Below, one piece after another: positions 9,658 to 57,802 of a DNA stretch of 64,000 nt (within the stretch, counting starts at the first letter, position 1; each line of letters opens with the position of its first letter). Source of the DNA: an uncultured Bacilli bacterium. GTDB lineage: Bacteria; Bacillota_I; Bacilli_A; RF39; UBA660. A program made the translations under genes and the position numbers. The stretch covers positions 25,769 through 89,768 of the forward strand of contig CALVRA010000002.1 of assembly GCA_944358415.1 (NCBI GenBank), in the 5' to 3' direction. The notes beneath the pieces were generated by a model. The model had not been told where the DNA came from. It did no database searches and worked only from the letters and a program-made list of their open reading frames with translations.

Positions 9658-12099
9658 ATGAAGATGAAAACTGGATTTTTTAAGAAAAAAATTAAATTAT
9701 TTTCTTTTTTGTGTTTAATTTTATTAGTGCTTTTTGTTAATTTAGGTCCTATATTTGCTGGAACTATTAGTTCTTCAACTGATTATTACAAAGAAGAAAG
9801 ACAGTTTATGAGGAAAATTGAAATTATTCATGAAGCTTTTCCTAATCAAATTGATGAAGCGGCTTTATATGCAACTATTGCACATAGGGGAACTTCTACA
9901 GGCTATGTAAAACAGTCGTATGATCCTGATTTTGATGAAAATGCATATAGAACTATTATAGGTAATTTTAAAAGTGATGTTAATAGTGTATTTGGTAATC
10001 CACTTCAATATATTGATGTTCCAGCGTTAATTGAGTTATTTCTTAATGCGGTAGGAGCAGCTTTAAGTTGTGGGATAGAGGCTATAATGGGAACTGATGA
10101 AAATGGAAATGAGGTTCAAACTGGTATTGATACTAGTAATGCGGATGTTCCGTGCATGGTTAGAAAGTTATTGGAACCATATTTTAATAAATTAAATCAT
10201 ACATCTGAAAAAAATGTCGAAACTTCAGTTACACAACCACGTTCTATAGATTTGTTAATTGCAGCTACAATTATAATGCTTGATTCTAGTCATTGGACAG
10301 GTACTTATAGTGATGAGAATTATATGAAGGCTTTAGCTGGTGATGGACTTGTAGGTAATATGTTTGATGGTAGTGATCTTTTTCAGGCTGTTGCAGCTAC
10401 AGTTTTTAATGGGGTAATTTGTGGTGCATATTTTATTGCTGATATAGGAACTGGCGGAAATTTTGTTAATATTGCATTAACTCATTTTAATCCTTCTATG
10501 ACTTTTACAGAAGATGATTCTTTTGGACTTGAAGGTGCAAGTCCAGAGGATAAACTTAGTCGATATTATACGATGGCTAATATATGTTCCTATGGTTTTT
10601 TAGGAGGAACTTATGATTATTTAAGGAATTATACTTTGGAAACTGATGAACAAAAAGAGCAGTATCAGGCTAAGAAAGATCAAATAGCAGAGGAAATTAT
10701 TCAGCTTGCTGATTATTATAGAAGAATTTCTAAATATAATTCTTCTGGAGGCAGTGGTTCTTGTTCTGGAGGTGGAGGTGTTTGTTCTTATAAGATTCCT
10801 GGTGTTGATGGAGAAGTAAGTAATATTAAAGTTCAAACTATTCAAAGTGAGTATGGTAATGTGTCTGGTAAAGCTGGTGATGATATTCCTGGTGAGGGTT
10901 TAATTGATTTTGAGGATGATTATATACCAGGAGTTGTATATGCTGAATTTGGAGGAGCTGATTCTGAAACTAGAAAAGCTCAGGCAGTGGCTTCTAGAAG
11001 TTATGCTTTAACACGTGGTACTGCTATGAATGGAGCACTTAATATTGGACTTTCTATTGAAGCTGGACAATGGGTTTTAAGAATTAGAACTAGTACAAGT
11101 GATCAAGTATATTGTGATGTTAAGCAAGGTTGTTCAACATTAAATGGAAGTATGCAAGGTACAATTCATGGAGCATATACTGTATATGCAGGAGCAATTA
11201 ATGGATCTTTGACAAGGCAGCCACTTTCTGATCAAACTTTATTAGATGATGTTGCAGCAACTAGAGGACAGGTTGCAGTTGATGGTTCTGGATTTGTTGT
11301 GAATACTGGTTTTGTTTCTAGTGATCAAAGAGCTTGGCAAAGTGCGATAGGTTCTGGGAAAGATTATAAGCAAGCGATTATTGATCATTATAGTAGTAGA
11401 GGTGTAGTTGATGTGACTTCTACTTGTGATAATAGTTGTGGCAGTTCTGGTATTTATTCTAATGATGAGTTGGAGGAGTATTATCAATTGTCTAAAGCAG
11501 CAGTTAAGACAAATACTAGTGTTTCGGCTGATATGGCTGGGACAGAGTATGGTTCGCTTGATGGATTTAATGCGCATATCAAAGAAACAATTAATAATGC
11601 TGGATATGGCACTAGACAAGGTGTAGTAGCAGCTGGGGTGTCTTTGATTGGTGATTATATTAAGGCTACTGGTAAACGTATTAGATATAATCAGAATGCT
11701 GGATTTTGTCCGGGAATTACAACTGGTAGACAATCCGCCGAAACTGAGGGGGTTGTTGATAATCTTTATTTGGATTGTAGCGGTTTTGCTTGGTGGACTT
11801 TATATAATGCTGGGTTTAAGATACCTTGTTATCCGGAAACTAGTGGTATATATAGTTGGGCTAGAAATGCTGGGTATATAACTGATAGTAGAGCAGGTAA
11901 AGCTGGTGATTTTGCTGTTACTAAAGGAAAAGGACATGTTATGTTAATTGTTGGTACTTATGATGGTGGATATTATGTGGCTGAGGAAACAGGATGTAGT
12001 GAAGGTGGCGAGATTAATAAGCGTTCTTATGATAGTTTATCTAATTATGCAATTATAAATATGGATGAATATTATAATAATCCGTCTAATTTAAGGTGA
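9658..12099 (+). CDS. large multidomain conjugation-associated cell-wall hydrolase: SpoIID/LytB-like lytic transglycosylase domain plus C-terminal NlpC/P60 endopeptidase (CwlT-analog)
   Basis: 813 aa with an N-terminal signal/TM. Central block IPGVVYAEFGGADSETRKAQAVASRSYALTRG matches the SpoIID/LytB conserved core. C-terminus LDCSGFAWWTLYNAGF…GDFAV…GHVMLIVG is an NlpC/P60 triad. Carries a Cys/Gly-rich linker SGGSGSCSGGGGVCS. Confidence 0.6.
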   Translation: MKMKTGFFKKKIKLFSFLCLILLVLFVNLGPIFAGTISSSTDYYKEERQFMRKIEIIHEAFPNQIDEAALYATIAHRGTSTGYVKQSYDPDFDENAYRTIIGNFKSDVNSVFGNPLQYIDVPALIELFLNAVGAALSCGIEAIMGTDENGNEVQTGIDTSNADVPCMVRKLLEPYFNKLNHTSEKNVETSVTQPRSIDLLIAATIIMLDSSHWTGTYSDENYMKALAGDGLVGNMFDGSDLFQAVAATVFNGVICGAYFIADIGTGGNFVNIALTHFNPSMTFTEDDSFGLEGASPEDKLSRYYTMANICSYGFLGGTYDYLRNYTLETDEQKEQYQAKKDQIAEEIIQLADYYRRISKYNSSGGSGSCSGGGGVCSYKIPGVDGEVSNIKVQTIQSEYGNVSGKAGDDIPGEGLIDFEDDYIPGVVYAEFGGADSETRKAQAVASRSYALTRGTAMNGALNIGLSIEAGQWVLRIRTSTSDQVYCDVKQGCSTLNGSMQGTIHGAYTVYAGAINGSLTRQPLSDQTLLDDVAATRGQVAVDGSGFVVNTGFVSSDQRAWQSAIGSGKDYKQAIIDHYSSRGVVDVTSTCDNSCGSSGIYSNDELEEYYQLSKAAVKTNTSVSADMAGTEYGSLDGFNAHIKETINNAGYGTRQGVVAAGVSLIGDYIKATGKRIRYNQNAGFCPGITTGRQSAETEGVVDNLYLDCSGFAWWTLYNAGFKIPCYPETSGIYSWARNAGYITDSRAGKAGDFAVTKGKGHVMLIVGTYDGGYYVAEETGCSEGGEINKRSYDSLSNYAIINMDEYYNNPSNLR

Positions 12100-15537: not shown

Positions 15538-15622
15538 TATCAGAGTAATTTTCTGATATTTTTTTGATTAGAAAAAGGAATTTTGCTTTTTTTGTCGTAT
15601 GTTTATATATAGAGGTGGAAAT

Positions 15623-16516
15623 ATGCAATATTATGAAATGATAAAAGAAACATTAATTAAAAATGAAGTATATAAAAAAGTAAAAGATTATTCAAAAAAC
15701 AGAAGTGATTTAAATGCTTATTTTGAAGTAGGCAGATTAATTGTAGAAGCACAGGGTGGTGAGGCTAGAGCCAAATACGGAAATAAGTTAATTAAAGAAT
15801 ACTCAGAAAAATTAACTAAGGAACTTGGAAAAGGATATACTTATACTAATTTAAGTAGAATGCGTCAATTTTATTTGCTTTCTTTAAAAGTTGCCGCAGT
15901 GCGGCAACTATCTGGTCATTTAACGTGGACACATTATCGTATATTATTATCAATTAAAGATATTAATGAAATAAAATATTATGTTAATATTGCTATTTCA
16001 AATAATTTATCTTCCAGAGAACTTGAAAAATGTATCAAGTCAAATGAGTATGAAAGAATAGGTAAAGATGTAAATATCAATGAATCAAAAGTAAATAGTT
16101 TAATAAAAAATCCGATATTAATTAAAGTAAAAAATAAAAATGAAAAGTTAACTGAATTTGCTTTACATCAGTCCATCTTAGAAAACATTGATGAATTTTT
16201 AAGAGAGTTAGGAATTGGTTTTACTTATGTTGGTAGTGAAGTAAAAATAAAGTTGGGAGATAGATATAACTATATAGATTTTTTGTTATTTAATTATATT
16301 TATAATTGTTTCATAGTTATAGAACTTAAAGTAACTGAATTAAAAGCTGAATATATTGGACAAATCATTAAATATATAGGCTATGTAGATAAAAATATGA
16401 GAAAACCATTTCACGAAGAAACCGTTGGTGTAATTATTTGTAAAAAAGAAAATAAATATGTGATGGAGTACTGCACTAATCCTAATATATTTGTATCTAC
16501 ATATCAAACTATATAG
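15623..16516 (+). CDS. DUF1016 (YhcG-like) PD-(D/E)XK nuclease-domain protein, copy 1
   Basis: N-terminal YhcG-like region (…FEVGRLIVEAQGGEARAKYGNKLIKEYSE…). C-terminal PD-(D/E)XK-like IDFLLFN…VIELKV. ATG at 15623 with an agaggtgg RBS. Confidence 0.55.
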   Translation: MQYYEMIKETLIKNEVYKKVKDYSKNRSDLNAYFEVGRLIVEAQGGEARAKYGNKLIKEYSEKLTKELGKGYTYTNLSRMRQFYLLSLKVAAVRQLSGHLTWTHYRILLSIKDINEIKYYVNIAISNNLSSRELEKCIKSNEYERIGKDVNINESKVNSLIKNPILIKVKNKNEKLTEFALHQSILENIDEFLRELGIGFTYVGSEVKIKLGDRYNYIDFLLFNYIYNCFIVIELKVTELKAEYIGQIIKYIGYVDKNMRKPFHEETVGVIICKKENKYVMEYCTNPNIFVSTYQTI

Positions 16517-16530
16517 AAAGTGGTGATTAA

Positions 16531-17415
16531 ATGAATTATTATAACGAAATAAAAGATGTACTTGTAAAAAATGAAGTTTATAAAAAAGTAAAAGATTATT
16601 CAAAAAACAAAAGTGATTTAAATGCTTACTTTGAAGTAGGAAGATTAATAGTGGAAGCTCAGGGTGGAGAAACTAGAGCCAAATATGGAAATAAGTTAAT
16701 TAAAGAATACTCAGAAAAATTAACTAAGGAACTTGGTAAGGGGTATAATATTACTAGTTTAAAAGGAATGCGTCAGTTTTTTATAAAAAGTCCGACATTG
16801 TCGGACCAATTGTATTTTTTGAATTGGAGTCAAATTTTAGAAATTATTTATTTTGAAGATGATAAAAAAATAAATTATTATATTGAGCAATGTATTATTT
16901 TTAATTTATCGGTAAGAGAACTTAGAGAAAGAATTAAGTCAAAAGAATATGAAAGAATAGGAAAAAATATTAAATTAGAAGAGCTAAAAGTAAATAATCT
17001 AATTAAAAATCCAATACTAATTAAAGTAAAAAATAAAGATGAAAAGTTAACCGAATATGTTTTACATCATTTTATTTTAGAAAATATGGAAGATTTTTTA
17101 AAAGAATTAGGAATAGGTTTTGCATTTATTGGAAATGAAGTAAAAATAAAAATGGGTGATAGGTATAATTATATAGATTTTTTGTTATTTAATTATAAAT
17201 TTAACTGTTTTGTTGTAATCGAACTTAAAGTAACTGAATTAAAAGCTGAATATATTGGTCAAATAACTAAATATATAAATTATGTAGATAAAAATATTAA
17301 AGAAGTATTTCATGAAAAGACAGTAGGTGTAATCATTTGTAAAAAAGAAAATAAATATGTGATGGAGTACTGTACCAATCCTAATATATTTACAACTACT
17401 TATGAAACTGTTTGA
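16531..17415 (+). CDS. DUF1016 (YhcG-like) PD-(D/E)XK nuclease-domain protein, copy 2 (tandem paralog)
   Basis: Roughly 65% identical to copy 1 over its full length. Same architecture. Confidence 0.55.
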   Translation: MNYYNEIKDVLVKNEVYKKVKDYSKNKSDLNAYFEVGRLIVEAQGGETRAKYGNKLIKEYSEKLTKELGKGYNITSLKGMRQFFIKSPTLSDQLYFLNWSQILEIIYFEDDKKINYYIEQCIIFNLSVRELRERIKSKEYERIGKNIKLEELKVNNLIKNPILIKVKNKDEKLTEYVLHHFILENMEDFLKELGIGFAFIGNEVKIKMGDRYNYIDFLLFNYKFNCFVVIELKVTELKAEYIGQITKYINYVDKNIKEVFHEKTVGVIICKKENKYVMEYCTNPNIFTTTYETV

Positions 17416-33368: not shown

Positions 33369-34388
33369 TTATTTTAGTCTTTTGGAAGTTTGTTTTAAAT
33401 GAATTAAAGAGAAACCATTTTTAAGAATTTGATTTAAGGGATTTTGAAACAAAACATTTTCAAAGTTTTGTATTTTATTTGGTTCATTACTTCTTTTTAT
33501 AATTTCATATAGTTTGAACTGAAGTTTATGGTATTTAATGAAATCTTTTAGAGGAATTGGTCCAGTGGTAAAGTTATCTAAGTTTTCTAAGAGATTAAAG
33601 AATTCTTCTTTAGTGCCATATTTACAAAATTGATAGATAACTGTGTCTAAATCGTTACTAAAAAAGGCATTTTGTAAGTCTTTAGGGTCATCAAAAAAAG
33701 TTTCTAATAGTTTTACTATACCAACATTTTTGGGATAGGCACAATGTTTATATTTAAATATTCTTTGGTTTAAAAGTTCGGTATAGCCTTCATTTAAACC
33801 GAGACCAATTTTTTCATTGAAACGAGTATTTAAATTGAAACCGCAGTGATCTTTATTATTTGTGCACATGTGAATAAATTCGTGACTTAAGACTTGTTTT
33901 GAATCAATAAAAAGATCTATGATGTTGGTGTCATAATGATAAAAACCAGCGTTGAAAGGTGGTTTTGCTAGGTTAGATAGGTAGTCTTTAAAGTGTTTTA
34001 TGATATTTTTGTTTTCTATTTTAACATTTTTTAAATTTTTTGCACAGTATTTAAGATTTTTTTCATCGACATTTTGAACAAATGTATTTACTATTTCTTT
34101 TAAATCTTCTGGGATTTTAATTGCTTTAATAATGTTAATATAGTCTTGTTTGTCATTTATTTTAAATAATAATTCAATTATTTTGGTGAATTTATTATTG
34201 TTTTTTTCTTTAATTTCACCAACACTGCGGTATAATTTTAGATGTCTAAGTTTGTTTTCTTTTCTATTTTTGATAGAAAAGTTTATTTGATTACTTATAT
34301 AAGTAATGAATATACCACTATTTATAGCTATAAAGAAATAGAAAGGTAAGCTATTAAGAGCTTGGATATAGGCTTGAATTATTTCCAT
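33369..34388 (-). CDS. membrane-anchored putative zinc metallopeptidase (HExxH…E), paralog 1
   Basis: N-terminal TM helix. …VLSHEFIHMCTNN… is followed ~25 aa later by GLGLNEGYTELLNQRIF. Paralogous to ORF 41473..42444. Confidence 0.4.
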   Translation of the reverse strand: MEIIQAYIQALNSLPFYFFIAINSGIFITYISNQINFSIKNRKENKLRHLKLYRSVGEIKEKNNNKFTKIIELLFKINDKQDYINIIKAIKIPEDLKEIVNTFVQNVDEKNLKYCAKNLKNVKIENKNIIKHFKDYLSNLAKPPFNAGFYHYDTNIIDLFIDSKQVLSHEFIHMCTNNKDHCGFNLNTRFNEKIGLGLNEGYTELLNQRIFKYKHCAYPKNVGIVKLLETFFDDPKDLQNAFFSNDLDTVIYQFCKYGTKEEFFNLLENLDNFTTGPIPLKDFIKYHKLQFKLYEIIKRSNEPNKIQNFENVLFQNPLNQILKNGFSLIHLKQTSKRLK

Positions 34389-35781: not shown

Positions 35782-35967
35782 TTTGGCGTTTTAGGAAAAT
35801 AAAGACATTTTTTTATTTTTTCATTTTCTTTTAGAAAAATAAAATTGACTTTTTCTTTTTCTTATGTAATAGGAAAGTCATACTTTTTAATAAAGTTTAC
35901 AAAAAGTGATTTACAAATATAACTGCTCGTGATATATTTAGTTAAACAAAAGTTGGAAGGTGATGGT

Positions 35968-37116
35968 ATGCAAATATTAAAAGGATATGTCTTTAGACTT
36001 TATCCTGATAAAAAGCAAGAAGAGTTAATCAATAAAACAATTGGATGTGCAAGATTTATATATAATTATTTTTTAGATGATAAAATTAAAGAATATAAAG
36101 AAATAGGTAAAAGTAAAAGTGCTTTTGATCAAGCAAAATTAATTCCATCACTAGCTAAAGAAAAAGAGTGGCTCAAAGAAGTAGACAGCTGCGCTCTTCG
36201 TACAAGTCTGTTTAATCTAGAAGATGCTTTTAAAAATTTTTATAATGGAAGAGGCTATCCTAGATTTAAAGCTAAAGGTGTTTATGAAAAATATAAAACA
36301 AATAATATTAAAAGTAGTTATAAAGGAAAAGAATATAACTCTATTAAACTAGATTTAAAAAATAGAACCATTACTTTACCAAAATTAAAAGAAGTAAAAA
36401 TCAGAGGATATAGAAATAAAGAAGTAATAATAGGTGATATAAAAAGTGCGGTTATCAAAAAAGAAGCTGGAAGATATTATGTCAGTGTATTAATTGAAGA
36501 AGAACTTATAAAACCATCTTTTGTACTATCAAGTATAATAGGAATAGATTTAGGAATAAAAGATTTAATAGTAACATCATTTAATGAAAAAATAGAAAAT
36601 ACTATTAAACTAAACTCTAAAAGATTAATTGGACTTCAAAGAGGACTTTCAAGATGTAAAAGTGGCAGTAAAAACAGATATAAAATGAAACTAAAAATAC
36701 AAAGATTATATCAAAAGATAAGAAACGCAAGAAAGCATATGATACATGATATAACAAATAAACTAATAAAAGAAAATGACATAATAGTAACTGAGAATTT
36801 AGATGTAAAAAATATGCAGAAGAATCACTATGTAGCAAAAGGCTTAAATGAAAACCCAATTTCTGAGATAATAAGAGTACTTAAATATAAAGCTATTTGG
36901 AATAATAAAAAACTAATACAAATAGATAGATATTATCCAAGCAGTCAAATATGTAGTGTTTGTAATTATCAAAATAAGGAAGTAAAAGATTTAAGCATAA
37001 GGAAATGGGAATGCCCAATATGTCACACCATACATGACCGTGATTATAATGCATCAGTAAATATAATGTTCGAAGGTTTAAAAATATATATGAAGGGCAT
37101 AGAACAATCTGCTTAA
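35968..37116 (+). CDS. tnpB: TnpB (OrfB_IS605) RNA-guided endonuclease family protein
   Basis: MQILKGYVFRLYP… N-terminus. RuvC-like motifs. C-terminal zinc finger CSVCNYQN…CPICHTIHDRDYNASVNI. Confidence 0.8.
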   Translation: MQILKGYVFRLYPDKKQEELINKTIGCARFIYNYFLDDKIKEYKEIGKSKSAFDQAKLIPSLAKEKEWLKEVDSCALRTSLFNLEDAFKNFYNGRGYPRFKAKGVYEKYKTNNIKSSYKGKEYNSIKLDLKNRTITLPKLKEVKIRGYRNKEVIIGDIKSAVIKKEAGRYYVSVLIEEELIKPSFVLSSIIGIDLGIKDLIVTSFNEKIENTIKLNSKRLIGLQRGLSRCKSGSKNRYKMKLKIQRLYQKIRNARKHMIHDITNKLIKENDIIVTENLDVKNMQKNHYVAKGLNENPISEIIRVLKYKAIWNNKKLIQIDRYYPSSQICSVCNYQNKEVKDLSIRKWECPICHTIHDRDYNASVNIMFEGLKIYMKGIEQSA

Positions 37117-41472: not shown

Positions 41473-42444
41473 TTAAGAATTGTGTTTAGTATATTTGTAC
41501 TGTTTTATTGGTTTACTTTTTATTAAATTTTTATTTTTAATAAATTTAATTAAAGGGTCTTTTTCAAGTAGTTTTTTGGCAGCTAAAATTTTATTTTTAT
41601 CATTAGATCGTTTGATAATATCATAAAGTTTGATTTTTGTTTTTACAGTGATGACTTTTTTATAAATGGGGATATCTGTTTCAATTAGATTATCAAGTGT
41701 TTGGAGTAGTAAGAAGAATTCTTTTTTAGTGCCATATTTTAAGAATGTGTGATAGACTTTGAAAATGTTATTATGAAAATAAGCATATTCCATATCTTTA
41801 GTGTTATCAAAAAAAAGTTCAAGTATTTTGATAATTTCGATATTATAGGTGTATGAAATTTTTTTAGTGTTGAAGATTCTTTGATTTAAAAGTTCGGTAT
41901 AGCCTTCATCTAGGCCATTTCCTATCCAACAGCTATCTAATTTAGTGTAGAAACCGGATGTTTGGTTTTTAAGTGTTGAAGCCATGTGCAGAAATTCATG
42001 AGATAGAACACTATTTTTATCAAATATTTTATAAATATCAATAGTGTTTTCTTTTGGAAGATATATTCCATCATTTAAATAATTTTGGAGGTATTTTTTA
42101 ATATCATGAATTAAGTCAAAATGATTGACTTTTAAATCTGTTAATCTATTTATGCATACTTGGAAGTTGATAGGATCAATATAATTTTTAAAGGTTATAA
42201 TAATTTCTTTTAATTCATTTGGATAGGATAAATTTTGTAAGATGTTTTCTAAGTCATCTATAGTTTGATTTTGAGTTACTTCTGTGTTTGGAAATTTATC
42301 AATGATGTTATAAGCTTCCATATTTCTTTGTTTGTTTAATTTTAGTGTTTTTAAATTTTGTGGAGTTTCAAAAAGACTATCTATGAGGTAAGTTATCATA
42401 TAAAGCCCAGAGAGGGCTGCAATGATATCAATAATATTTATCAT
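41473..42444 (-). CDS. membrane-anchored putative zinc metallopeptidase (HExxH…E), paralog 2
   Basis: N-terminal TM helix. …VLSHEFLHMAST…GLDEGYTELLNQRIF. Paralogous to ORF 33369..34388. Confidence 0.4.
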   Translation of the reverse strand: MINIIDIIAALSGLYMITYLIDSLFETPQNLKTLKLNKQRNMEAYNIIDKFPNTEVTQNQTIDDLENILQNLSYPNELKEIIITFKNYIDPINFQVCINRLTDLKVNHFDLIHDIKKYLQNYLNDGIYLPKENTIDIYKIFDKNSVLSHEFLHMASTLKNQTSGFYTKLDSCWIGNGLDEGYTELLNQRIFNTKKISYTYNIEIIKILELFFDNTKDMEYAYFHNNIFKVYHTFLKYGTKKEFFLLLQTLDNLIETDIPIYKKVITVKTKIKLYDIIKRSNDKNKILAAKKLLEKDPLIKFIKNKNLIKSKPIKQYKYTKHNS

Positions 42445-50382: not shown

Positions 50383-50901
50383 ATGAGAGTTAAAGGTGGA
50401 ACTATTCATCGCGCACGCCGAAAGAAAGCTTTAAAACAAGCTAAAGGTTATTTCGGTAGTAAACATAGACTTTATAAAACTGCTAAAGAACAAGTAATGC
50501 ATTCAGGTGCTTATGCATATAGAGATAGAAGAAATAGAAAAAGAGATTTTAGAAAATTATGGATTACAAGAATTAATGCGGCTTGTAGATTAAATGATAT
50601 TAGTTATTCTAAGTTTATTGATGGTCTTAATAAGGCTAATATAGAGGTTAATAGAAAAATGCTTGCTGAGATTGCTATAGATGATTCTAAGGCATTTGCA
50701 GAACTTGTAAAAGCAGCAAAAGCTGCACTTGATGGAAAAGAGTATAAAGCAGTTAAGGTAGAAGTTAAAGAAGAGAAAAAAAGTGAAAGTACTGATTTAA
50801 GTAAAATGACAGTTGCTGAACTTAAACAATTAGCTAAGGAAAAAAAGGTTGAAGGTTATTCAACTATGAAAAAAGCTGAACTATTAGAAGCTTTAAAATA
50901 A
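50383..50901 (+). CDS. rplT: 50S ribosomal protein L20 with a ~55-aa C-terminal extension (Rho_N-like helix-hairpin)
   Basis: N-terminal ~118 aa are canonical L20 ([15 protein letters not shown]…). The extension ends …[31 protein letters not shown]. Confidence 0.8.
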
Positions 50902-50921
50902 GGGGTTAGTCCCTTTTTTTC
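50899..50921 (+). terminator. terminator after rplT
   Basis: AAGGGG-ttagt-CCCTT followed by TTTTTTT. Confidence 0.45.
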
Positions 50922-50936
50922 TTAGAAAGGGGTTTT

Positions 50937-51428
50937 ATGAAAAATTTATATATTGATTTTGATGGAGTTATTTATAATTCTATCGAAGTGTCTTATAAAC
51001 TAGCTGAAGAGGAAAATGTTTCAAAGGATTATGAAAGTTATTATCAGTTTTTTAAAAATTTGGACTGGTGTGATGTTTTAGAAAAAAGTACAGAAATTAA
51101 TGATGCTTTTAATTGTATAAAAAAGATTATAGATAGTGGAAAATTTAATGTTTTTATTTTGACCCATGTTATTTCTTTAAAAGAAGCTGAATTAAAAATT
51201 GGTTTAATTAGAAATCATTTGGATGATGTAACGATTATTCCAGTTCCTAAAAGGGTGTCAAAAAATAAAATGGTTAAGGTGAATGGAGCTATTTTAGTAG
51301 ATGATTATCCTGAAAATTTACGTGAATGGGAGAGGGACGGAGGCATTTCCGTTAGATTTGATTTAGATATGGATGGAAAAGGTTTTCCAGTTATCTGTAA
51401 GCTTGATGAACTTGTAGAAATGTTTTAA
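50937..51428 (+). CDS. HAD-superfamily 5'(3')-deoxyribonucleotidase-like protein
   Basis: HAD motif I IDFDGV at the N-terminus. ~160-aa size is typical of NT5C-like bacterial proteins. Confidence 0.45.
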   Translation: MKNLYIDFDGVIYNSIEVSYKLAEEENVSKDYESYYQFFKNLDWCDVLEKSTEINDAFNCIKKIIDSGKFNVFILTHVISLKEAELKIGLIRNHLDDVTIIPVPKRVSKNKMVKVNGAILVDDYPENLREWERDGGISVRFDLDMDGKGFPVICKLDELVEMF

Positions 51429-51485
51429 AACTATGTACAAAATGCATGAAAAAATGGTATAATTGTACTACTTGGAGATGAGGAT

Positions 51486-52478
51486 ATGTTAGTATTAGCC
51501 AAAGCTGTACTGTCGATTATGTTAGGATTCTCTGTTTCAGTCGTTTTTGGCTACTTTGCTATTAAATGGCTGAAGAAGAAACATATAAGACAGCAAGTTA
51601 GTAACACTTTAGGAGAAAGACATAAAAGAAAAAATGGAACGCCGACGACTGGAGGTATAATATTTATCATTCCGACGGTTTTGATAATGATAGCTCTGGT
51701 ACTTACGGGAAAGGTCGAGTTTTCGACAAACTTATTTATTGTATTATTTGTATTTATTGCTTATGCAATATTTGGGTATATTGATGATTATTTAATTATA
51801 AAACGGCATACAAATGATGGACTTAGTATATTTTGGAAACTCGTTTTACAAATAATTGTCGCTTTAGTATTTTTCTATATGTTTTTAAGTAGTGGTAATG
51901 ATCCGATTGTGGATATTCACACTTTGGGTATAAAGCTGGACTTGGGATGGCTTTATGGAATGTTTTTACTATTTGTTTTAGTTGGTAGTAGTAATGCGGT
52001 GAATATTACAGACGGACTTGATGGACTTGCTGGTGGACTTTCAGCTATTGCGTTTTTTGCTTTTGGTATTATTACTTGGGGTGCTAATTGGGCTTCTGGT
52101 AATGAAGCAATCGCGATTTTCTGTTTTGTTTTAGTTGGATCGCTTGTTGGATTTTTGGTTTATAATTGTTATCCAGCTAAGGTCTTTATGGGTGATACAG
52201 GATCTTTATCTTTAGGTGCGGCACTGGCTAGTGTGGCAATTATTACGAATCACGAAGTAACACTTATTATTGTGGCCGGTGTATTTGTTATCGAGACTTT
52301 GAGTGTTATTATACAATGGATTGCAATAAGTAAATTTCATACTAAAGTATTTTTAATGGCACCACTTCATCATCATTTTGAGAAGTTAGGCTGGTCTGAA
52401 TCAGATGTTGTTAGGTTATTTTGGTCAGCTGGTTTACTACTTAGTATGGTAGCTATTGGCTTTGGTGTGTGGATATAG
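51486..52478 (+). CDS. mraY: phospho-N-acetylmuramoyl-pentapeptide transferase MraY
   Basis: Polytopic membrane protein. …NGTPTTGG… loop. …NAVNITDGLDGLAGG…. HHHFEK C-terminal motif. Confidence 0.8.
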   Translation: MLVLAKAVLSIMLGFSVSVVFGYFAIKWLKKKHIRQQVSNTLGERHKRKNGTPTTGGIIFIIPTVLIMIALVLTGKVEFSTNLFIVLFVFIAYAIFGYIDDYLIIKRHTNDGLSIFWKLVLQIIVALVFFYMFLSSGNDPIVDIHTLGIKLDLGWLYGMFLLFVLVGSSNAVNITDGLDGLAGGLSAIAFFAFGIITWGANWASGNEAIAIFCFVLVGSLVGFLVYNCYPAKVFMGDTGSLSLGAALASVAIITNHEVTLIIVAGVFVIETLSVIIQWIAISKFHTKVFLMAPLHHHFEKLGWSESDVVRLFWSAGLLLSMVAIGFGVWI

Positions 52479-52491
52479 GAGGAATTAAATT

Positions 52492-53745
52492 ATGGCAAAA
52501 AGTGAAAAAGAAATTGAAATTGTTGTTGAAGGAAAAGAATGGGAAGAGGCTTTAGATAAAGCATTTAAGAAAGCTAATAAAAATGCGAAGATTGATGGTT
52601 TTAGACCTGGTAAAGCTCCAAAAGATGTATTTTTAAAGAAATATGGTAAAGAGTCTTTATATATGGATGCTGCAGATATGGCAGCTGATATAGCTTATCA
52701 AAAGTTACTTACTGAGTACGCTTCAGATGTACAAGAGTTAGTGGCTCGTCCTGATATTGCTTTAACTGATATTAATGACGAAAAAGTGACTTTTAAATTT
52801 ACTTTAACTATGAAACCAGAAGTTAAACTTGGTAAATATAAAGGTTTAGGTATTAAGAAAGATGAAGTAAAAGCTGAAGCTGAAGAAATTGAAGATGCTA
52901 TTAAACATATGCGTGAAAGATATGCGGAGGATGTTTTAAAAGAAGGGGCTATTGCTGATGGTGATGTAGCAGTTATCGATTTCGAGGGTTTTATCGATGG
53001 TAAGGCTTTTGAAGGTGGTAAGTCAGAAAATTATTCTTTAAAAATTGGTAGTGGAACATTTATTCCTGGGTTTGAAGATCAGTTAATTGGACTTAAATCA
53101 GGTGATAAAAAAGATGTTAAGGTTACTTTCCCAGAAGATTATCATGCTGAAGATTTGAAAGGTAAAGATGCTATTTTTAAAGTAACTGTTCATGAAGTTA
53201 AAGAGGTTAAAATTCCAGAATTAGATAAGGATTTCTTCGAAGATTTAGGTATGGAAGGAATTAATACTAAAGAGGAATTAGAAGCACAAATTTCTGAAAA
53301 TATTTTGGCTCGTAAGGAAATGGAAGCTGAAAATAAATATTTAGATGAATTACTTGAGGCAGCAGCTAAAGATGTTAAGGTTGAAATTCCTGAAGCTATG
53401 ATTAATGAAGAGTTAGATAGAATGGTGGCACAATATGCTGATCATTTGAAAATGCAAGGTATTACTATTGAACAGTTCTATCAATTTACAAATTCTGATG
53501 AGCAAGCTTTAAAGGATCAAATGAGACCAGAAGCTATTAAGAGAATTACTTATAGATTAATGCTTGAAGAAATTGCTAAAGAAGAGAAAATTGAAATTGA
53601 TGATAAAGAAGCTAAGGAAGAGGCTAAGAAGTTAGCTGAAAAATACCAAATGAAAGAAGATGAATTCTTAAGTGCATTTGGTGGACTTGATATTGTTAAA
53701 TACGATATGAGAATGCGCAGGGCTATGGAAATCCTAAAGAAATAG
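52492..53745 (+). CDS. tig: trigger factor
   Basis: …DGFRPGKAPK… ribosome-binding signature. Central FKBP-type PPIase domain (…VIDFEGFIDGKAFEGGK…). 417 aa. Confidence 0.85.
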   Translation: MAKSEKEIEIVVEGKEWEEALDKAFKKANKNAKIDGFRPGKAPKDVFLKKYGKESLYMDAADMAADIAYQKLLTEYASDVQELVARPDIALTDINDEKVTFKFTLTMKPEVKLGKYKGLGIKKDEVKAEAEEIEDAIKHMRERYAEDVLKEGAIADGDVAVIDFEGFIDGKAFEGGKSENYSLKIGSGTFIPGFEDQLIGLKSGDKKDVKVTFPEDYHAEDLKGKDAIFKVTVHEVKEVKIPELDKDFFEDLGMEGINTKEELEAQISENILARKEMEAENKYLDELLEAAAKDVKVEIPEAMINEELDRMVAQYADHLKMQGITIEQFYQFTNSDEQALKDQMRPEAIKRITYRLMLEEIAKEEKIEIDDKEAKEEAKKLAEKYQMKEDEFLSAFGGLDIVKYDMRMRRAMEILKK

Positions 53746-53794
53746 GGTTTCTTTTTTTATACATAAGGAAAGTGCATTTTTGAATGATAAACAA

Positions 53795-54380
53795 ATGTTT
53801 GTAAAAAAGTTATTTACAAATATAACTATTCGTGATATAGTGATTGCAATATAGATTGAAGGTGATGATATGAAAATACTAAAAGGTTATGTATTTAGGA
53901 TGTATCCTAATGAAAATCAAGAAGAGTTAATTAATAAAACTATTGGTTGCTCTAGATTTGTATATAATTATTTTTTGGATGATAAAATTAAAGAATATAA
54001 AAAAACTGGCAAAAGTAAAAGTGCTTATGACCAAATAAAATTAATACCATCACTTTCTAAAGAAAAACCATGGCTAAAAGAAGTAGATAGCTGCGCACTT
54101 AGAAATAGTCTATTTAATTTAGAAGATGCTTATAAAAGATTTTTTAATGGAAATGGTTATCCTAGATTTAAAGCAAAAGGAGTACATGAAAGTTATAAAA
54201 CTAATAATATTAAAAGTAGTTATAAAGGAAATAATTATAATAGTATAAAATTAGATTTAAAAAATAAAACAATAACTTTACCAAAGTTAAAAGAAGTAAA
54301 GATAAGAGGATATAGAAATAAAGAAGTAATACCTGGTGAGGTTAAAAGTGCTGTAATTAAGAAAGATGCCGGTAAATATA
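53795..54380 (+). mobile_element. second, 3'-truncated copy of the IS605-family tnpB element (left end plus 5' ~510 nt of tnpB)
   Basis: Left end is conserved with copy 1 (TTTACAAATATAACTATTCGTGATATA). It has a perfect TTTGTAAA-aaagttat-TTTACAAA subterminal hairpin. Homology to copy 1 ends abruptly near 54380. Confidence 0.55.
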
Positions 54381-54532
54381 ATATGTTTGGACTGTTTTGC
54401 TTGTCGCCTAATTCTAGTAACTCTAACAACGTGTTCAATGTGAACAACAACGGCAACGTCAACAACAACAACGCGAACAATACGAACAACGCGGTCCGCC
54501 CTTTGAACTCTCTAAAACACTATGGATTATGA
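53870..54532 (+). pseudogene. tnpB: tnpB fragment (N-terminal ~170 aa of TnpB) reading through into an unrelated Asn/AAC-rich tail
   Basis: ~75% identical to TnpB residues 1-170 of copy 1. It then diverges (…DAGKYNMFGLFCLSPNSSNSNNVFNVNNNGNVNNNNANNTNN…). The RuvC-II/III and zinc-finger regions are absent. Confidence 0.7.
54400..54505 (+). repeat. candidate DGR template repeat (TR): AAC-codon-rich, GC-rich segment ending in a GC-rich IMH-like stretch
   Basis: TCT AAC AAC GTG TTC AAT GTG AAC AAC AAC GGC AAC GTC AAC AAC AAC AAC GCG AAC AAT ACG AAC AAC GCG GTC CGC CC, with 15 in-frame AAC/AAT codons. GC content is far above the local background. Lies ~300 bp upstream of the Avd/RT genes. Confidence 0.45.
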
Positions 54533-54579
54533 ACTAATATGGTCATAATGAAAAGATTAGAGAATAAGTATTGTCACAA

Positions 54580-54614
54580 GTTAGGAAAACTACATCGACA
54601 AATTGTTTCCTAAC
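54580..54614 (+). other. 9-bp stem hairpin between the candidate TR and the accessory genes
   Basis: GTTAGGAAA-(17 nt loop)-TTTCCTAAC. Confidence 0.35.
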
Positions 54615-54736
54615 TAAATATTAAATATAGTCAGAGATGTTTCTAGTAAAATTGATTATTAAATATGTCCTGGTGATTAGTTAATAATCTATAATATTTG
54701 AAAGAGATATGATATGAGAAAAACTATATTTTTTTA

Positions 54737-54782
54737 GCAGTACCAATTAGGGATTAGTCCCTTATTTGATACTGCTTTTTTG
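54737..54782 (+). terminator. nested hairpin plus T-run (terminator-like) upstream of the MutS-domain gene
   Basis: GCAGTA…AGGGA-ttag-TCCCT…TACTGC followed by TTTTTT. The inner AGGGA-TTAG-TCCCT hairpin is near-identical to the rplT terminator at 50901. Confidence 0.4.
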
Positions 54783-54793
54783 TTGGAGGTTGT

Positions 54794-55204
54794 ATGATAA
54801 AAATAATTGATAAATATAATTTATATAAAAATAAATATCCAAAATGTGTAGTTTTAATGAAGGTTGGTATTTTCTACGAGTGTTATGGTGAGGATGTATA
54901 TGTTTTAAATAACTTATTTAGTTATAAAATTAAAGATTTTAATGGTATAAAAAGAGTTGGTTTTCCTATTAACAGTTATGATAAGGTAATTTCAAAGTTT
55001 AAGAGTTTTAAGATAAATTATGTAATTATTGAAGATGATGATATAACACGTAAGAAGTTTAATTTTAATAATTATGATAGGTTTGTCCCAGATGATTTGA
55101 ATTTGGAAGATAGAATTAATAAGGTATATGATAGGCTTAGGGTTTTAAAAAATAATTCAAAGATTATGGATGTATTGGATAAAGTTGAGGAAATTTTATG
55201 GTAG
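54794..55204 (+). CDS. stand-alone MutS domain I (mismatch-binding domain)-like protein, DGR-associated
   Basis: …YNLYKNKYPKCVVLMKVGIFYECYGEDVYVLNNLFSYKIKDFNG–IKRVGFPINSYDKVISKFKSFKINYVIIED… aligns block-for-block with MutS domain I (…[43 protein letters not shown]…[30 protein letters not shown]). ttggaggttgt RBS. Overlaps the avd start. Confidence 0.55.
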   Translation: MIKIIDKYNLYKNKYPKCVVLMKVGIFYECYGEDVYVLNNLFSYKIKDFNGIKRVGFPINSYDKVISKFKSFKINYVIIEDDDITRKKFNFNNYDRFVPDDLNLEDRINKVYDRLRVLKNNSKIMDVLDKVEEILW

Positions 55205-55548
55205 ATAATTTTAGGGTAGTGATTAATATAAAAAAAACAATTTTATATTTAGATAAGATTATTACTAATTTCCCGGCTAAAGAAAAAGTTCTTAGGGACA
55301 AAATTAGTCAAACGATGTATGATATTTTAGAGTTTACATATATGGCAAGTGAGTTTAAGGATAAGCGGACATATTATCAAACAAGGATAGTTGTTAATAT
55401 TAAAATGACTGATTTTTATTTGAAGACGGCAGTTGATAAAAAGTATATTTCTTACAAAAAATATCAGAAAGTTTCTTTACATTTATTAGATATTTTAAAA
55501 CAGATTTATGGATGGATGAGAAATGAAAAGAAGACGGAATCTATATGA
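55198..55548 (+). CDS. avd: Avd-like accessory variability determinant (small basic four-helix-bundle family)
   Basis: 116-aa basic helical protein. Immediately upstream of the DGR-type RT and overlapping it by 26 nt, the canonical avd-rt arrangement. Confidence 0.55.
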   Translation: MVDNFRVVINIKKTILYLDKIITNFPAKEKVLRDKISQTMYDILEFTYMASEFKDKRTYYQTRIVVNIKMTDFYLKTAVDKKYISYKKYQKVSLHLLDILKQIYGWMRNEKKTESI

Positions 55549-56683
55549 TAGTGTTAGTATGGAAGATATTATAAAGGTTTATAGGAGACAAATTAGAGTT
55601 AATACTAAAAATAAATATAAGATTAAAAGATTTGAAGATTTTTATTCTATAAATATTAGCTGGGTTAAAAAGACTTTTGAAAATGAGAATTATGTGGGTG
55701 GGATGTACAATATATTTTTAATTCAAGAACCTAAGTATAGAATTATTATGAGTCAAAATATTTATGATAAGTTAATTAATCATGTGGTAGCAGCTAAGTT
55801 TTTATTACCTGTTTTAGATAGATGTTTGATTGAGACAAATATTGCGACAAGGTTAAATAAAGGTACGCATTTTGGAATTAAACTTATAAAAAAATATTTG
55901 AATAATTTAAAAGGTGAGACGATTTATGCACTTAAGTATGATATTAGTAAGTATTTTTATAATATAGACCATGAGATTTTGTTAGATTTACTTAATAAAA
56001 AAATTAAAGATAAAAAGGTTTTAGATATACTTAAAAAGATTATTTATTCACCTGATAAGGAATATGTTAATAGGACGATAGAAAAATTAAAGAATATGGA
56101 GATAGAGCGAATTTGTGGGTTAAATATAAGTGATAAAGAAAAGAATATTAAAATTAGAGAGATTGAGCAAATTCCTTTATATAAAAAAGGCAGAGGACTG
56201 CCGATTGGAAATATGACAAGTCAGATACTAGCTGTGTTTTACTTAAATGAGCTTGATCATTTTATTAAAGAAGATTTGGGGGCTAAGTATTATATAAGAT
56301 ATATGGATGATGGGATAATACTTTCTAATGACAAGGAATATTTAAAGAATTGTCTAAAGGAAATAGAAAAGGTGGTATTAAAGTATCGTCTTTGTTTGAA
56401 TAGGAAAACGAAGATTATTAATGTTAGTAAAGAAGGACTTGATTTTTTAGGGTTTAGATACTGTATTATAGATAATAAAGTAATACTGAAAGTTCGAAAA
56501 TTAACTAAGAAAAATTTTAAACGAAAAATTAAACTAATTTATGAAGAAAAAATTTCTTTAGAAAGTGGTTTAAGAATTATTAGTAGTTATAGGGGACATT
56601 TAAAGTGGGGAAATTGTTATAATTTAATGAAAACAACTTTAAAAATTAATTTTGAAAATTGTAAAATATACATTGATAAATAA
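55523..56683 (+). CDS. diversity-generating retroelement (DGR)-type reverse transcriptase
   Basis: N-terminus …RRNLYDSVSMEDI…. Motifs EPKYRIIMSQ, DRCLIETNIATRLNKGTHFG (NKGTH) and ALKYDISKYF (motif A Asp). LPIGNMTSQILAVFYLNELDHF carries the DGR-diagnostic IGxxxSQ in place of the QGxxxSP of group II and retron RTs. YIRYMDDGII is the YxDD box. 386 aa. Confidence 0.8.
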   Translation: MKRRRNLYDSVSMEDIIKVYRRQIRVNTKNKYKIKRFEDFYSINISWVKKTFENENYVGGMYNIFLIQEPKYRIIMSQNIYDKLINHVVAAKFLLPVLDRCLIETNIATRLNKGTHFGIKLIKKYLNNLKGETIYALKYDISKYFYNIDHEILLDLLNKKIKDKKVLDILKKIIYSPDKEYVNRTIEKLKNMEIERICGLNISDKEKNIKIREIEQIPLYKKGRGLPIGNMTSQILAVFYLNELDHFIKEDLGAKYYIRYMDDGIILSNDKEYLKNCLKEIEKVVLKYRLCLNRKTKIINVSKEGLDFLGFRYCIIDNKVILKVRKLTKKNFKRKIKLIYEEKISLESGLRIISSYRGHLKWGNCYNLMKTTLKINFENCKIYIDK

Positions 56684-56803
56684 TTTATGATATTGAAAAT
56701 AAAAAAATGTAGTTGTATATTGTACCTAATTAATGTTTGAAAAATAATTAAATGTACTTTAAAATGTTTTAATTTCTTTGTATAATTATAGTTGGTGGTA
56801 GCT

Positions 56804-57802
56804 ATGAAAAAAAAGAAAATTAGAAAGGGTTTGTTATTTATTATTTTGATTATACTAATTGGAACATTTTATTTTATCTTTTTTGATGAGGATAATGTAT
56901 TAACTAATAAAATTGGTGATAGTGTTGATGTGGCTTTAAAAAATATTACAAAAAGTACAGATGCATATAAGAAATGTATGAAAGGTATTTTAAAAGAAGA
57001 AGATTTTAGTGATAATTTAAAGAATAAGAAGAATGAGATAATTAGTTTATATAATGGGGTTAATGCGAATTTTATGTATACTGATTTGGAAAGTGATTAT
57101 AGTTTTGGTGAGGGTATAGATGATGAGTTATATGCGGCTTCAGTTACTAAATTACCAGCTGTTTTATATACTTATAGACTTGCGGATGAGGGAAATATTA
57201 ATTTGAATAAGGAGCTTACTTATTTGGCATCTTATAAAACTGGAGGCAGTGGAATTATACAAAATGATAGCATAGGAACTAAGTATAAGTTAAGTACTAT
57301 TTTAGAGTATACGATTAAATATAGTGATAATATAGGCTATGCGATGCTTTTAGATGAGCTTGGTGGAAGAAATAAAGTTAAAGAATATTGGTCTAGTTTA
57401 GGTTATAATATAAAGTATACAGATAATTTTGGTAATTTATCGCCAAGTCTTGGTAATGGGTATATTAAAGAGGTTTATAAGTATTATTTGACAGGAAAGG
57501 AAAATGCGAAGAAGCTTATAAATGATATGAAAGTATCTGATAATTTAGAGTATGTTAAAAGTGGTGATATTGAGGTAGCTCATAAGTATGGTGAGTATGT
57601 GGAAGGTGGAGGATATTATAATGATGTTAGTTTAAATTTTACTGAACATCCTTTTGCTTTGTCTATTACTAGTACTTTGGGTCTTACTGATAAGATGAAA
57701 AATTTATTTTTAGAAACACATAGGCTTTCTATAGAGTTTAATAATTTGTATTATCAGGAAAAAGAAAATTATTGTGTAGAAAAATCACATGTTTTAGGAT
57801 AA
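56804..57802 (+). CDS. membrane-anchored class A beta-lactamase-like / serine hydrolase family protein
   Basis: N-terminal TM helix. SxxK (AASVTKLPA) and SDN (YSDNIGY) motifs. tataat at 56782-87 just upstream. Confidence 0.5.
   Translation: MKKKKIRKGLLFIILIILIGTFYFIFFDEDNVLTNKIGDSVDVALKNITKSTDAYKKCMKGILKEEDFSDNLKNKKNEIISLYNGVNANFMYTDLESDYSFGEGIDDELYAASVTKLPAVLYTYRLADEGNINLNKELTYLASYKTGGSGIIQNDSIGTKYKLSTILEYTIKYSDNIGYAMLLDELGGRNKVKEYWSSLGYNIKYTDNFGNLSPSLGNGYIKEVYKYYLTGKENAKKLINDMKVSDNLEYVKSGDIEVAHKYGEYVEGGGYYNDVSLNFTEHPFALSITSTLGLTDKMKNLFLETHRLSIEFNNLYYQEKENYCVEKSHVLG

Follow-up and report, generated by a model that had tools for sequence, protein, structure and literature searches.

An AAC-rich tail on a truncated tnpB is very probably the template repeat of a rearranged MutS-like diversity-generating retroelement

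What is an AAC-rich stretch of DNA doing in frame behind a broken transposon gene and ahead of the genes of a diversity-generating retroelement (DGR)? The question is raised by 64,000 nucleotides from an uncultured, low-GC Bacilli bacterium (contig CALVRA010000002.1, positions 25,769 to 89,768). This whole stretch is called the window here; its numbering is used throughout, and features lie on its plus strand unless stated otherwise. In it, an open reading frame (ORF) for 220 aa, at 53870-54532, is made up of the N-terminus of tnpB, a leader, the AAC-rich segment and nine codons of spacer, and ends in a TGA stop at 54530-54532. A sequence-only reading of the window had noted that the frame of the tnpB fragment runs about 50 codons into the AAC-rich segment up to a stop at 54530, as the ORF confirms, and had offered two explanations: an untranslated template repeat (TR) that is in frame by coincidence, or a naive variable repeat (VR) of a chimeric target. 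Our analysis supports the first. We hold it very probable that 54399-54505 is the TR of a DGR, set beside the tnpB fragment by a rearrangement, and that the in-frame join is accidental. The segment differs from its surroundings in composition: the 49 codons of the ORF tail include 15 AAC and 3 AAT, where the tnpB part has 16 AAT and no AAC; 108 nt of the segment contain 14 occurrences of AAC, compared with 10.3 per kb across the window; and the GC content is 46% at 54400-54499 and 14-31% in non-overlapping intervals on either side.

The identity of the segment rests on comparison with relatives, which were obtained by tracing homologues of the DGR reverse transcriptase (RT) to their contigs. 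Four of these, L024, L029, L086 and L091 (RT identity 79%, 65%, 64% and 87%, respectively), share one layout: a DUF6273 gene with the VR, terminator hairpins, a leader, the TR, a spacer, a MutS-like (MSL) gene, bAvd and the RT. The TR of the intact relatives is thus intergenic, with the DUF6273 target gene that bears the VR on one side and the MSL gene on the other. In the TR/VR pairs of L024, L029 and L086 (103-110 nt) there are 14, 23 and 15 differences, respectively, all at TR adenines and none elsewhere; because every difference falls at an adenine of the intergenic copy, that copy can be identified as the TR, and the one within the gene as the VR. The pair of L091 departs from this simple correspondence: between L091:264-395 and 590-700, the VR is one NAC codon longer than the TR (five versus four between GTG and GCG), and this indel in the AAC run shows that the TR/VR pairs of the DGR family are not always collinear.

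The 107-nt segment of the window (54399-54505) is orthologous to the TRs of all four relatives, shares their AAC bias and resembles the TR copy on both sides. Upstream, 54380-54398 retains the 3' part of the DGR RNA leader, AATATGTTTGGACTGTTTT, matching the sequence that precedes the TR in L024, L091 and L029; it is the counterpart of AATATGTTTGG(A/G)TCTGTTA, the leader of L024 and L091. Downstream, the flank is of the TR type (AACTCTCTAAAACAC..., AACTCTCTAAAACACTATGG...) and runs into a conserved spacer, while the VR-type flank (TTAACTCTTTCTTCT..., TTAACTCTTTCTTCTGAAGTCC..., encoding ITLSSEVQITGG) is absent from the window. On both flanks, then, L024, L029 and L091 agree with the window in their TR copy and not in their VR copy. 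At the 3' end of the segment, the GC-rich GCGGTCCGCCCTTTG (54491-54505), which occurs once in the window, takes the position of the initiation of mutagenic homing element IMH* in Bordetella nomenclature, and TR/VR homology ends here in the relatives; the IMH-like stretch proposed from the letters alone is thus correctly placed at the 3' end of that homology. What differs is the DNA further upstream: the TR follows a target gene in the relatives, with terminators and leader filling the roughly 120 nt in between, and the window has the left end and 170 codons of tnpB instead.

Why the segment can be read through at all follows from its origin. One reading frame, that of the chimeric ORF, is open through it, and the remaining two run into stops after 9 and 20 codons. 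A TR keeps the open frame of its VR because it is homologous to coding sequence, and as the frame shared with the VR is the only one open, the in-frame junction with tnpB amounts to a 1-in-3 accident. The translated tail fits the invariant scaffold of DUF6273 targets, LSP.S..S..VF.V...G.V....A......AVRP, with the variable residues of those targets coinciding exactly with the AAC codons of the TR. It also gives a weak match to positions 134-171 of the 172 in the DUF6273 profile (16.8 bits, under the curated cut-off of 23.5 bits), the C-terminal end to which the VRs of published DGR targets map (PMC11792537, PMC10743442). An ATG in the VR frame just 5' of the TR (ATGTTTGG / ATGTGTGG), at 54383-54385 in the window, is conserved in the relatives (L024:8865-8867, L029 about 8832, L091:573-575) and opens a small ORF through the TR; as L029 does not keep the frame beyond the TR, this is probably not a coding feature.

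Could the segment instead be a naive VR at the 3' end of a newly formed chimeric target (TnpB N-terminus plus lectin-like tail), awaiting diversification by the cassette next to it? Being in frame and annotated as part of a gene, it would fit that role, but what lies upstream is TnpB rather than a complete gene for a lectin-like/Ig domain, and the roughly 38 of 172 DUF6273 profile positions present are insufficient for a lectin-like fold. The GC-rich end and the hairpin downstream superficially recall the IMH and hairpin/cruciform of Bordetella VRs (PMC3240598); that hairpin, however, is 75 nt from the end of the repeat and not within 24 bp (PMC3240598), and it is orthologous to a hairpin of the spacer on the TR side. 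An A-rich VR-like remnant beside a target-gene tail in another relative, L023, makes A-rich VRs possible in the lineage; against this, the window segment has TR-type flanks on both sides, the leader (AATATGTTTGG) in front and AACTCTCTAAAACAC... behind, the latter running on into a spacer with 97-99% identity to the spacers of relatives; it lacks the tail of the VR type, TTAACTCTTTCTTCTGAAGTCC... (encoding ITLSSEVQITGG), and the cassette holds no other TR from which the segment could be templated. With zero variation among assemblies and a synteny that contradicts it, we reject a naive VR as very improbable.

Reading the segment as a TR has a practical consequence for annotation. The 220-aa ORF is annotated as a gene in three ENA assemblies and its product is also recorded from NCBI, so that a public "HTH_OrfB_IS605" protein is in fact a pseudogene fused to a noncoding template. 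This is a trap for annotators: the chimeric ORF is a by-product of rearrangement, neither a target nor a new protein, and its product should not be taken for a TnpB variant or a DGR target.

The DNA between the TR and the MSL gene, about 280 nt long in the ancestral layout, supplied further evidence that the TR side of a DGR is at hand. The first 74 nt (spacer segment 1, 54506-54579), which include an invariant stem TTATGA/TCATAA, are better conserved than any other part of the cassette, with 72/74 positions identical in L024, 73/74 in L021 (another relative) and 62/74 in L029, or 84-99%, compared with 63-85% nucleotide identity for the protein genes. In L029 the reading frame 3' of the TR is displaced by one base, yet the DNA sequence there is conserved, which indicates that the spacer is conserved as RNA or DNA and not as protein. 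Next comes a hairpin with a stem of 9-10 bp and a variable loop (54579-54615). The stable hairpin that had been reported at 54580-54614 and likened to TR 3' ends and spacer structures, with a putative part in cDNA priming, proved to be real, conserved and covarying: it folds at -10.2 kcal/mol (z = -4.1; 0/200 shuffles as good), 98.6% of the cells are paired in eight distinct aligned sequences, and four of nine pairs show compensatory double changes, among them A-U to U-A and G-C to U-A, at a sequence identity to the relatives of only 49-54%. None of 500 shuffles reached the observed score in a covariation control of the whole structure, which took in one mis-indexed helix, and slid registers all scored lower. 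As the eight sequences represent about four independent lineages, we consider this support good but not overwhelming. This hairpin is distinct from the VR-side hairpin/cruciform described in PMC3240598, being on the TR side and 75 nt from the repeat.

Spacer segment 2 (54616-54735) is 89% identical to L024 and L021 and contains the conserved blocks AAATATAGTCAGAGAT and GATATGATATGAGAAAAACTATA. It is followed, just 5' of the MSL gene, by a two-tier stem-loop with a T-run (54736-54781) that resembles a terminator and whose inner stem was found by the terminator scan. The outer stem, AGCAGTA/TACTGCT, is kept in the eight sequences with G-U changes only; the inner stems vary in sequence and are, by eye, self-complementary in each lineage, and because they do not align RNAalifold recovers only the outer stem. 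A helix CTCTAA/TTAGAG around the TTATGA/TCATAA stem was not predicted by RNAalifold, the fold of the whole 54380-54790 RNA was not distinctive (z = -1.7), leaving only the local elements supported, and no Rfam family matched 53000-57500 at E <= 1. In phage BPP-1 of Bordetella, Avd binds to a noncoding segment 3' of the TR, and this segment permits processive, template-primed synthesis of cDNA (PMC6182149); the conserved spacer block is the positional analogue of this Avd-binding segment and, by that analogy, may have the same function. The comparison defines a conserved noncoding RNA of the MSL-type family, composed of leader, TR, near-invariant 74-nt block, covarying hairpin and terminator-like stem-loop, which could guide experiments on how the template is recognized by Avd, the RT and MSL.

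How did a TR come to abut a transposon gene? The left end of a truncated insertion sequence (IS) of the IS605 family occupies 53804-53869 (about 78% identity to the sequence upstream of a full-length copy; repeat family D14), directly 3' of the trigger-factor gene and that gene's terminator, and is followed by 170 codons of the 5' part of tnpB (53870-54379), a pseudogene. The fragment is 83% identical in amino acids to residues 9-183 of a full-length 395-aa tnpB at 35929-37116, and DNA homology to that copy, which extends over about 65 nt of the left end, ceases near 54380. Of the TnpB domains, HTH_OrfB_IS605 (Pfam, E 1.1e-18) is the only one present; OrfB_IS605 (RuvC-like) and the zinc finger are missing. 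Neither an IS right end nor an omega-RNA was found in 54380-54800, which has no similarity to the full-length IS or to the rest of the window. The fragment thus resembles the tnpB-only elements of the IS200/IS605 family (IS1341-like) in the 170 codons and left end homologous to a full-length copy 18 kb away, and differs from them in being cut before the OrfB_IS605/RuvC and zinc-finger domains and in lacking a right end, and it does not amount to a functional TnpB. The full-length copy, whose left end begins at about 35901, is 84% identical in nucleotides to the truncated one and has no adjacent tnpA. Another full-length tnpB lies immediately 3' of the DGR RT in the relative L024 (L024:11674-12882).

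The junction between tnpB and the DGR leader falls somewhere within 54371-54385, in an AT-rich stretch similar to both parents: by eye, CGGTAAATATAATATG matches the L024 leader at 12 of 16 positions and the full-length tnpB at 10 of 16. This similarity suggests, from the sequences at the join, that the junction may have formed by illegitimate recombination or deletion at short homology. A chimera produced during assembly by repeats, either the two tnpB copies or a TR and VR, might leave the same picture, and two Logan run assemblies do break within the TR at 54473 and fail to span the junction. The exact junction recurs, however, in three ENA assemblies (L001, L002 and L006), which come from three samples and two projects and are base-for-base identical over 54380-54640; it is therefore not an assembly artefact, and the 220-aa product recorded from NCBI agrees. 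The second tnpB copy, at 35929-37116, could in principle have misled an assembler, but its 84% identity is low and the junction lies in unique sequence, so that we give the assembly explanation hardly any credence.

The two Logan contigs that break within the TR (L003 and L004, from ERR4096315 and ERR4096300) both start at exactly 54473 and are identical to the window from there on; the ENA assemblies read through this point. Another sequence in these samples, a VR or a variant junction, probably shares the 3' part of the TR. L002 in turn differs from the window in one patch of about 1.5 kb (50500-52000), with some 229 differing alignment columns in an otherwise identical 13.6 kb; the patch runs from the 3' end of rplT through a 163-aa ORF into the 5' part of a Glycos_transf_4 gene, and looks like a recombination tract.

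We then considered to which class the element belongs. Downstream of the spacer, three genes follow one another: an MSL accessory gene (136 aa, 54794-55204; MutS_I, E 7e-8), full length and 81-84% identical to L024 and L023; a bAvd accessory gene (116 aa, 55198-55548; PF22296, E 1.3e-11), full length and 84-87% identical to the relatives; and the DGR RT (386 aa, 55523-56683; RVT_1, E 3.6e-18), full length compared with the relatives and carrying the motifs IGNMTSQ (residues 227-234) and YMDD (residue 260) that place it in the DGR clade. The trio of MSL, bAvd and RT was present in all the relatives fetched, and MutS_I together with avd and without HRDC marks the MSL type. The combination of MSL, avd and RT is Architecture D of Wu et al. 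2018 (PMC5758913), a paper in which MSL-type DGRs and remote targets are both described. The locus is a rearranged member of these known MutS-like DGRs, not a new kind of gene, and it leaves the known picture of DGRs unchanged.

Comparison with described systems bears this out. With the MSL DGRs of Architecture D, including the Legionella DGR (PMC5758913), the locus and its relatives share the small MutS_I-like gene, avd and a DGR-type RT, an adenine-rich TR templating a C-type-lectin-like VR, a chromosomal location that is not obviously phage-borne and, in the relatives, the use of non-adjacent targets. It differs from them in that the adjacent target and VR have been deleted and the TR abuts a tnpB fragment, in its order of TR, long structured spacer with terminator-like stem-loop, MSL, avd and RT, and in that the targets of its relatives are DUF6273 proteins of uncultured gut Bacilli. 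The Bordetella BPP-1 DGR (mtd/VR - avd - TR - spacer - brt) likewise has a TR of AAC codons, Avd and RT, a GC-rich 3' end of the repeat and a noncoding 3' segment; the window has a different gene order, an additional MSL gene and a spacer without sequence similarity to that of BPP-1, and its hairpin is on the TR side, 75 nt off, whereas the VR of BPP-1 is adjacent and its hairpin/cruciform lies <=24 bp from the VR (PMC3240598). In the Treponema denticola-type DGRs with remote targets (PMC5758913), one TR/RT module serves distant VRs, as is also seen in the relative L084 described below; those DGRs have HRDC where the present one has MSL, and no remote VR for the window was found in the collections searched. 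RT relatives in IMG/VR were at most 36% identical, too distant for an alignment of the spacer.

Several results weigh against the assignment of the segment as a TR. A comparison across assemblies had been proposed as a test, strict conservation pointing to a TR, and the segment is indeed identical in every assembly found. The genomes carrying the junction are clonal, however, with 0 differences over 13-18 kb outside the patch in L002, so this invariance is weak evidence by itself and speaks only against an actively varying VR. Secondly, no cognate VR came to light in the window, the one part of this genome that was searched, or in public collections. An adenine-masked scan of both strands of the 64-kb window found none (best non-A match 50%; for five sub-segments of the TR the best non-A matches were 0.45-0.57, that is, noise). 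A pattern with A replaced by N matched the GTDB species representatives 14 times, never at a cognate VR: 13 of the matches are in unrelated, mostly high-GC taxa and the remaining one is the TR of L021, from a metagenome-assembled genome of an uncultured Bacilli bacterium. A shorter pattern gave 34 matches in JGI metagenomes, all on contigs of 59-77% GC with unrelated flanks and none of them a VR, and no match in IMG/VR. The TR/VR pair that defines a DGR is therefore not demonstrated for the element of the window itself. Thirdly, the native upstream region, possibly with a promoter, has been deleted. Finally, the same locus is decaying in L021, L022/L023 and L027/L028, where the TR is cut by an element with a trio of recombinases, and in L021 the RT ORF ends after 293 aa; with sister loci in this state, the intact ORFs of the window do not prove function, and cut TRs together with a truncated RT indicate that loss of the DGR is common and tolerated in related lineages.

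Other searches for a partner of the TR or a target gave the same answer. A direct-repeat search of the window returned no partner for the TR, and tblastn found no DUF6273 homologue in the window, and with it no target carrying a VR in a C-type-lectin-like or Ig fold; the relatives have DUF6273 targets. The 120 top homologues of the target in L024 were all compatible with the TR scaffold, and none had the AVRPL ending expected from the TR of the window; matching at the protein level cannot assign a VR to a particular TR. A close relative lends plausibility to distant targets. Contig L084 carries a VR at the rpmE-gpsA locus, with no cassette within 10 kb, that agrees with the L024 TR at 69/69 non-A positions and differs from it at 21 adenines. 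In all, this contig has two DUF6273 genes among housekeeping genes (L084:1-781 and 10001-10939), again with no DGR cassette within 10 kb: one contains this VR, cognate to the L024-type TR, and the repeat of the other is of a different type, ending in GCGGTCCGCCC like the TR of the window without being cognate to it. In this close relative, then, one type of TR matches both a target adjacent to the cassette and a VR that has none within 10 kb. Several DUF6273 paralogues of the lineage are also recorded on a single 1.52-Mb contig.

These comparisons point to a history. The ancestral order, seen in four relatives, was a DUF6273 target with a 3' VR, terminators, a short leader, the TR, a spacer of about 280 nt, MSL, bAvd and RT. 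A rearrangement very probably removed the target gene, the terminators and the start of the leader, so that the leader, from some 19 nt upstream of the TR, now follows codon 170 of a tnpB copy of the IS605 family; the join landed in the sole frame open through the TR, the one shared with the VR, and so created the 220-aa chimeric ORF. If the cassette worked like the Bordetella prototype, the RNA of leader, TR and spacer would be bound through its spacer by Avd-RT, the RT would copy the TR with misincorporation at adenines, and the cDNA would replace the VR in a DUF6273 gene for a C-type-lectin-like protein. Any such activity in this strain would need a VR outside the 64-kb window, and transcription of the TR RNA would depend on a promoter in the left end of the IS or on a -10 box created by the junction. 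The best sigma-70-like site of the region, a putative promoter (TTTACA-17-TATAGT, TG-extended, 53813-53841), does lie in the IS left end, and the promoter/terminator scan found no terminator-like site between it and 54749. At the junction, 54377-54382 reads TATAAT, a perfect -10 hexamer in place of the ACTAAT or ACTAGT of the relatives, with no good -35 upstream.

Is the cassette, then, a dead relic, its target, native promoter and VR gone and its TR, MSL, Avd and RT decaying? The missing VR (in the window, GTDB representatives, JGI metagenomes and IMG/VR), the deleted upstream region and, at the same locus of related lineages, the cut TRs and the truncated RT ORF are what such a relic would lead one to expect. 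Yet the three protein genes are full length with their catalytic motifs present, the TR, 19 nt of leader and the entire spacer are intact, a promoter-like site lies upstream with no terminator in between, and L084 and the paralogues of the 1.52-Mb contig provide VRs or possible targets away from a cassette; of this genome itself, moreover, the search for a VR took in the window alone. We find the case for a relic evenly balanced, and a cassette that is still usable in trans has about the same chance; the segment is a TR either way. The more specific proposal that the orphaned cassette is still active, diversifying DUF6273 genes elsewhere purely in trans by means of TR RNA made from the IS605 left-end promoter or the junction TATAAT, we put forward as possible but somewhat doubtful. 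If it holds, a DGR would here be reduced to a template-and-enzyme module that has no local target and is kept running by the promoter of a transposon remnant. The locus is in any case a small natural experiment, a template/enzyme module that is complete but has lost the target beside it.

In the sister lineages, a second mobile element is taking the same DGR module apart. Three of them have interrupted TRs, with the interruption at a different place in each but always directly before an AAC codon (AACGTG, AACAAT and AACGTC). What interrupts the TR is the same terminus, an inverted repeat (...TTTTTTGTCATAT), of an element of the recombinase-in-trio type, which carries three tyrosine recombinases in tandem. 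The abutments examined are at L021:2040-2130, L023:1790-1990 and 5160-5260, L022:1-110 and L027:1-130. The opposite end of the element borders, in L023 and as a mirror image, on the 3' portion of a VR-like repeat (from AACGTG) that is joined to the tail of a target gene. Since the element ends are nearly identical and the flanking spacers lineage-specific, the sequences suggest that this element may have inserted repeatedly and recently into DGR repeats, or that rearrangements took place at them.

Two further sets of repeats were observed in the window. On the minus strand, at 33369-34388 and 41473-42444, there are two diverged paralogous genes of 339 and 323 aa (repeat families D4 and D19), and at 15604-17201 lies a pair of tandem duplicates of about 900 nt (families D2 and D3) that are 81-84% identical.

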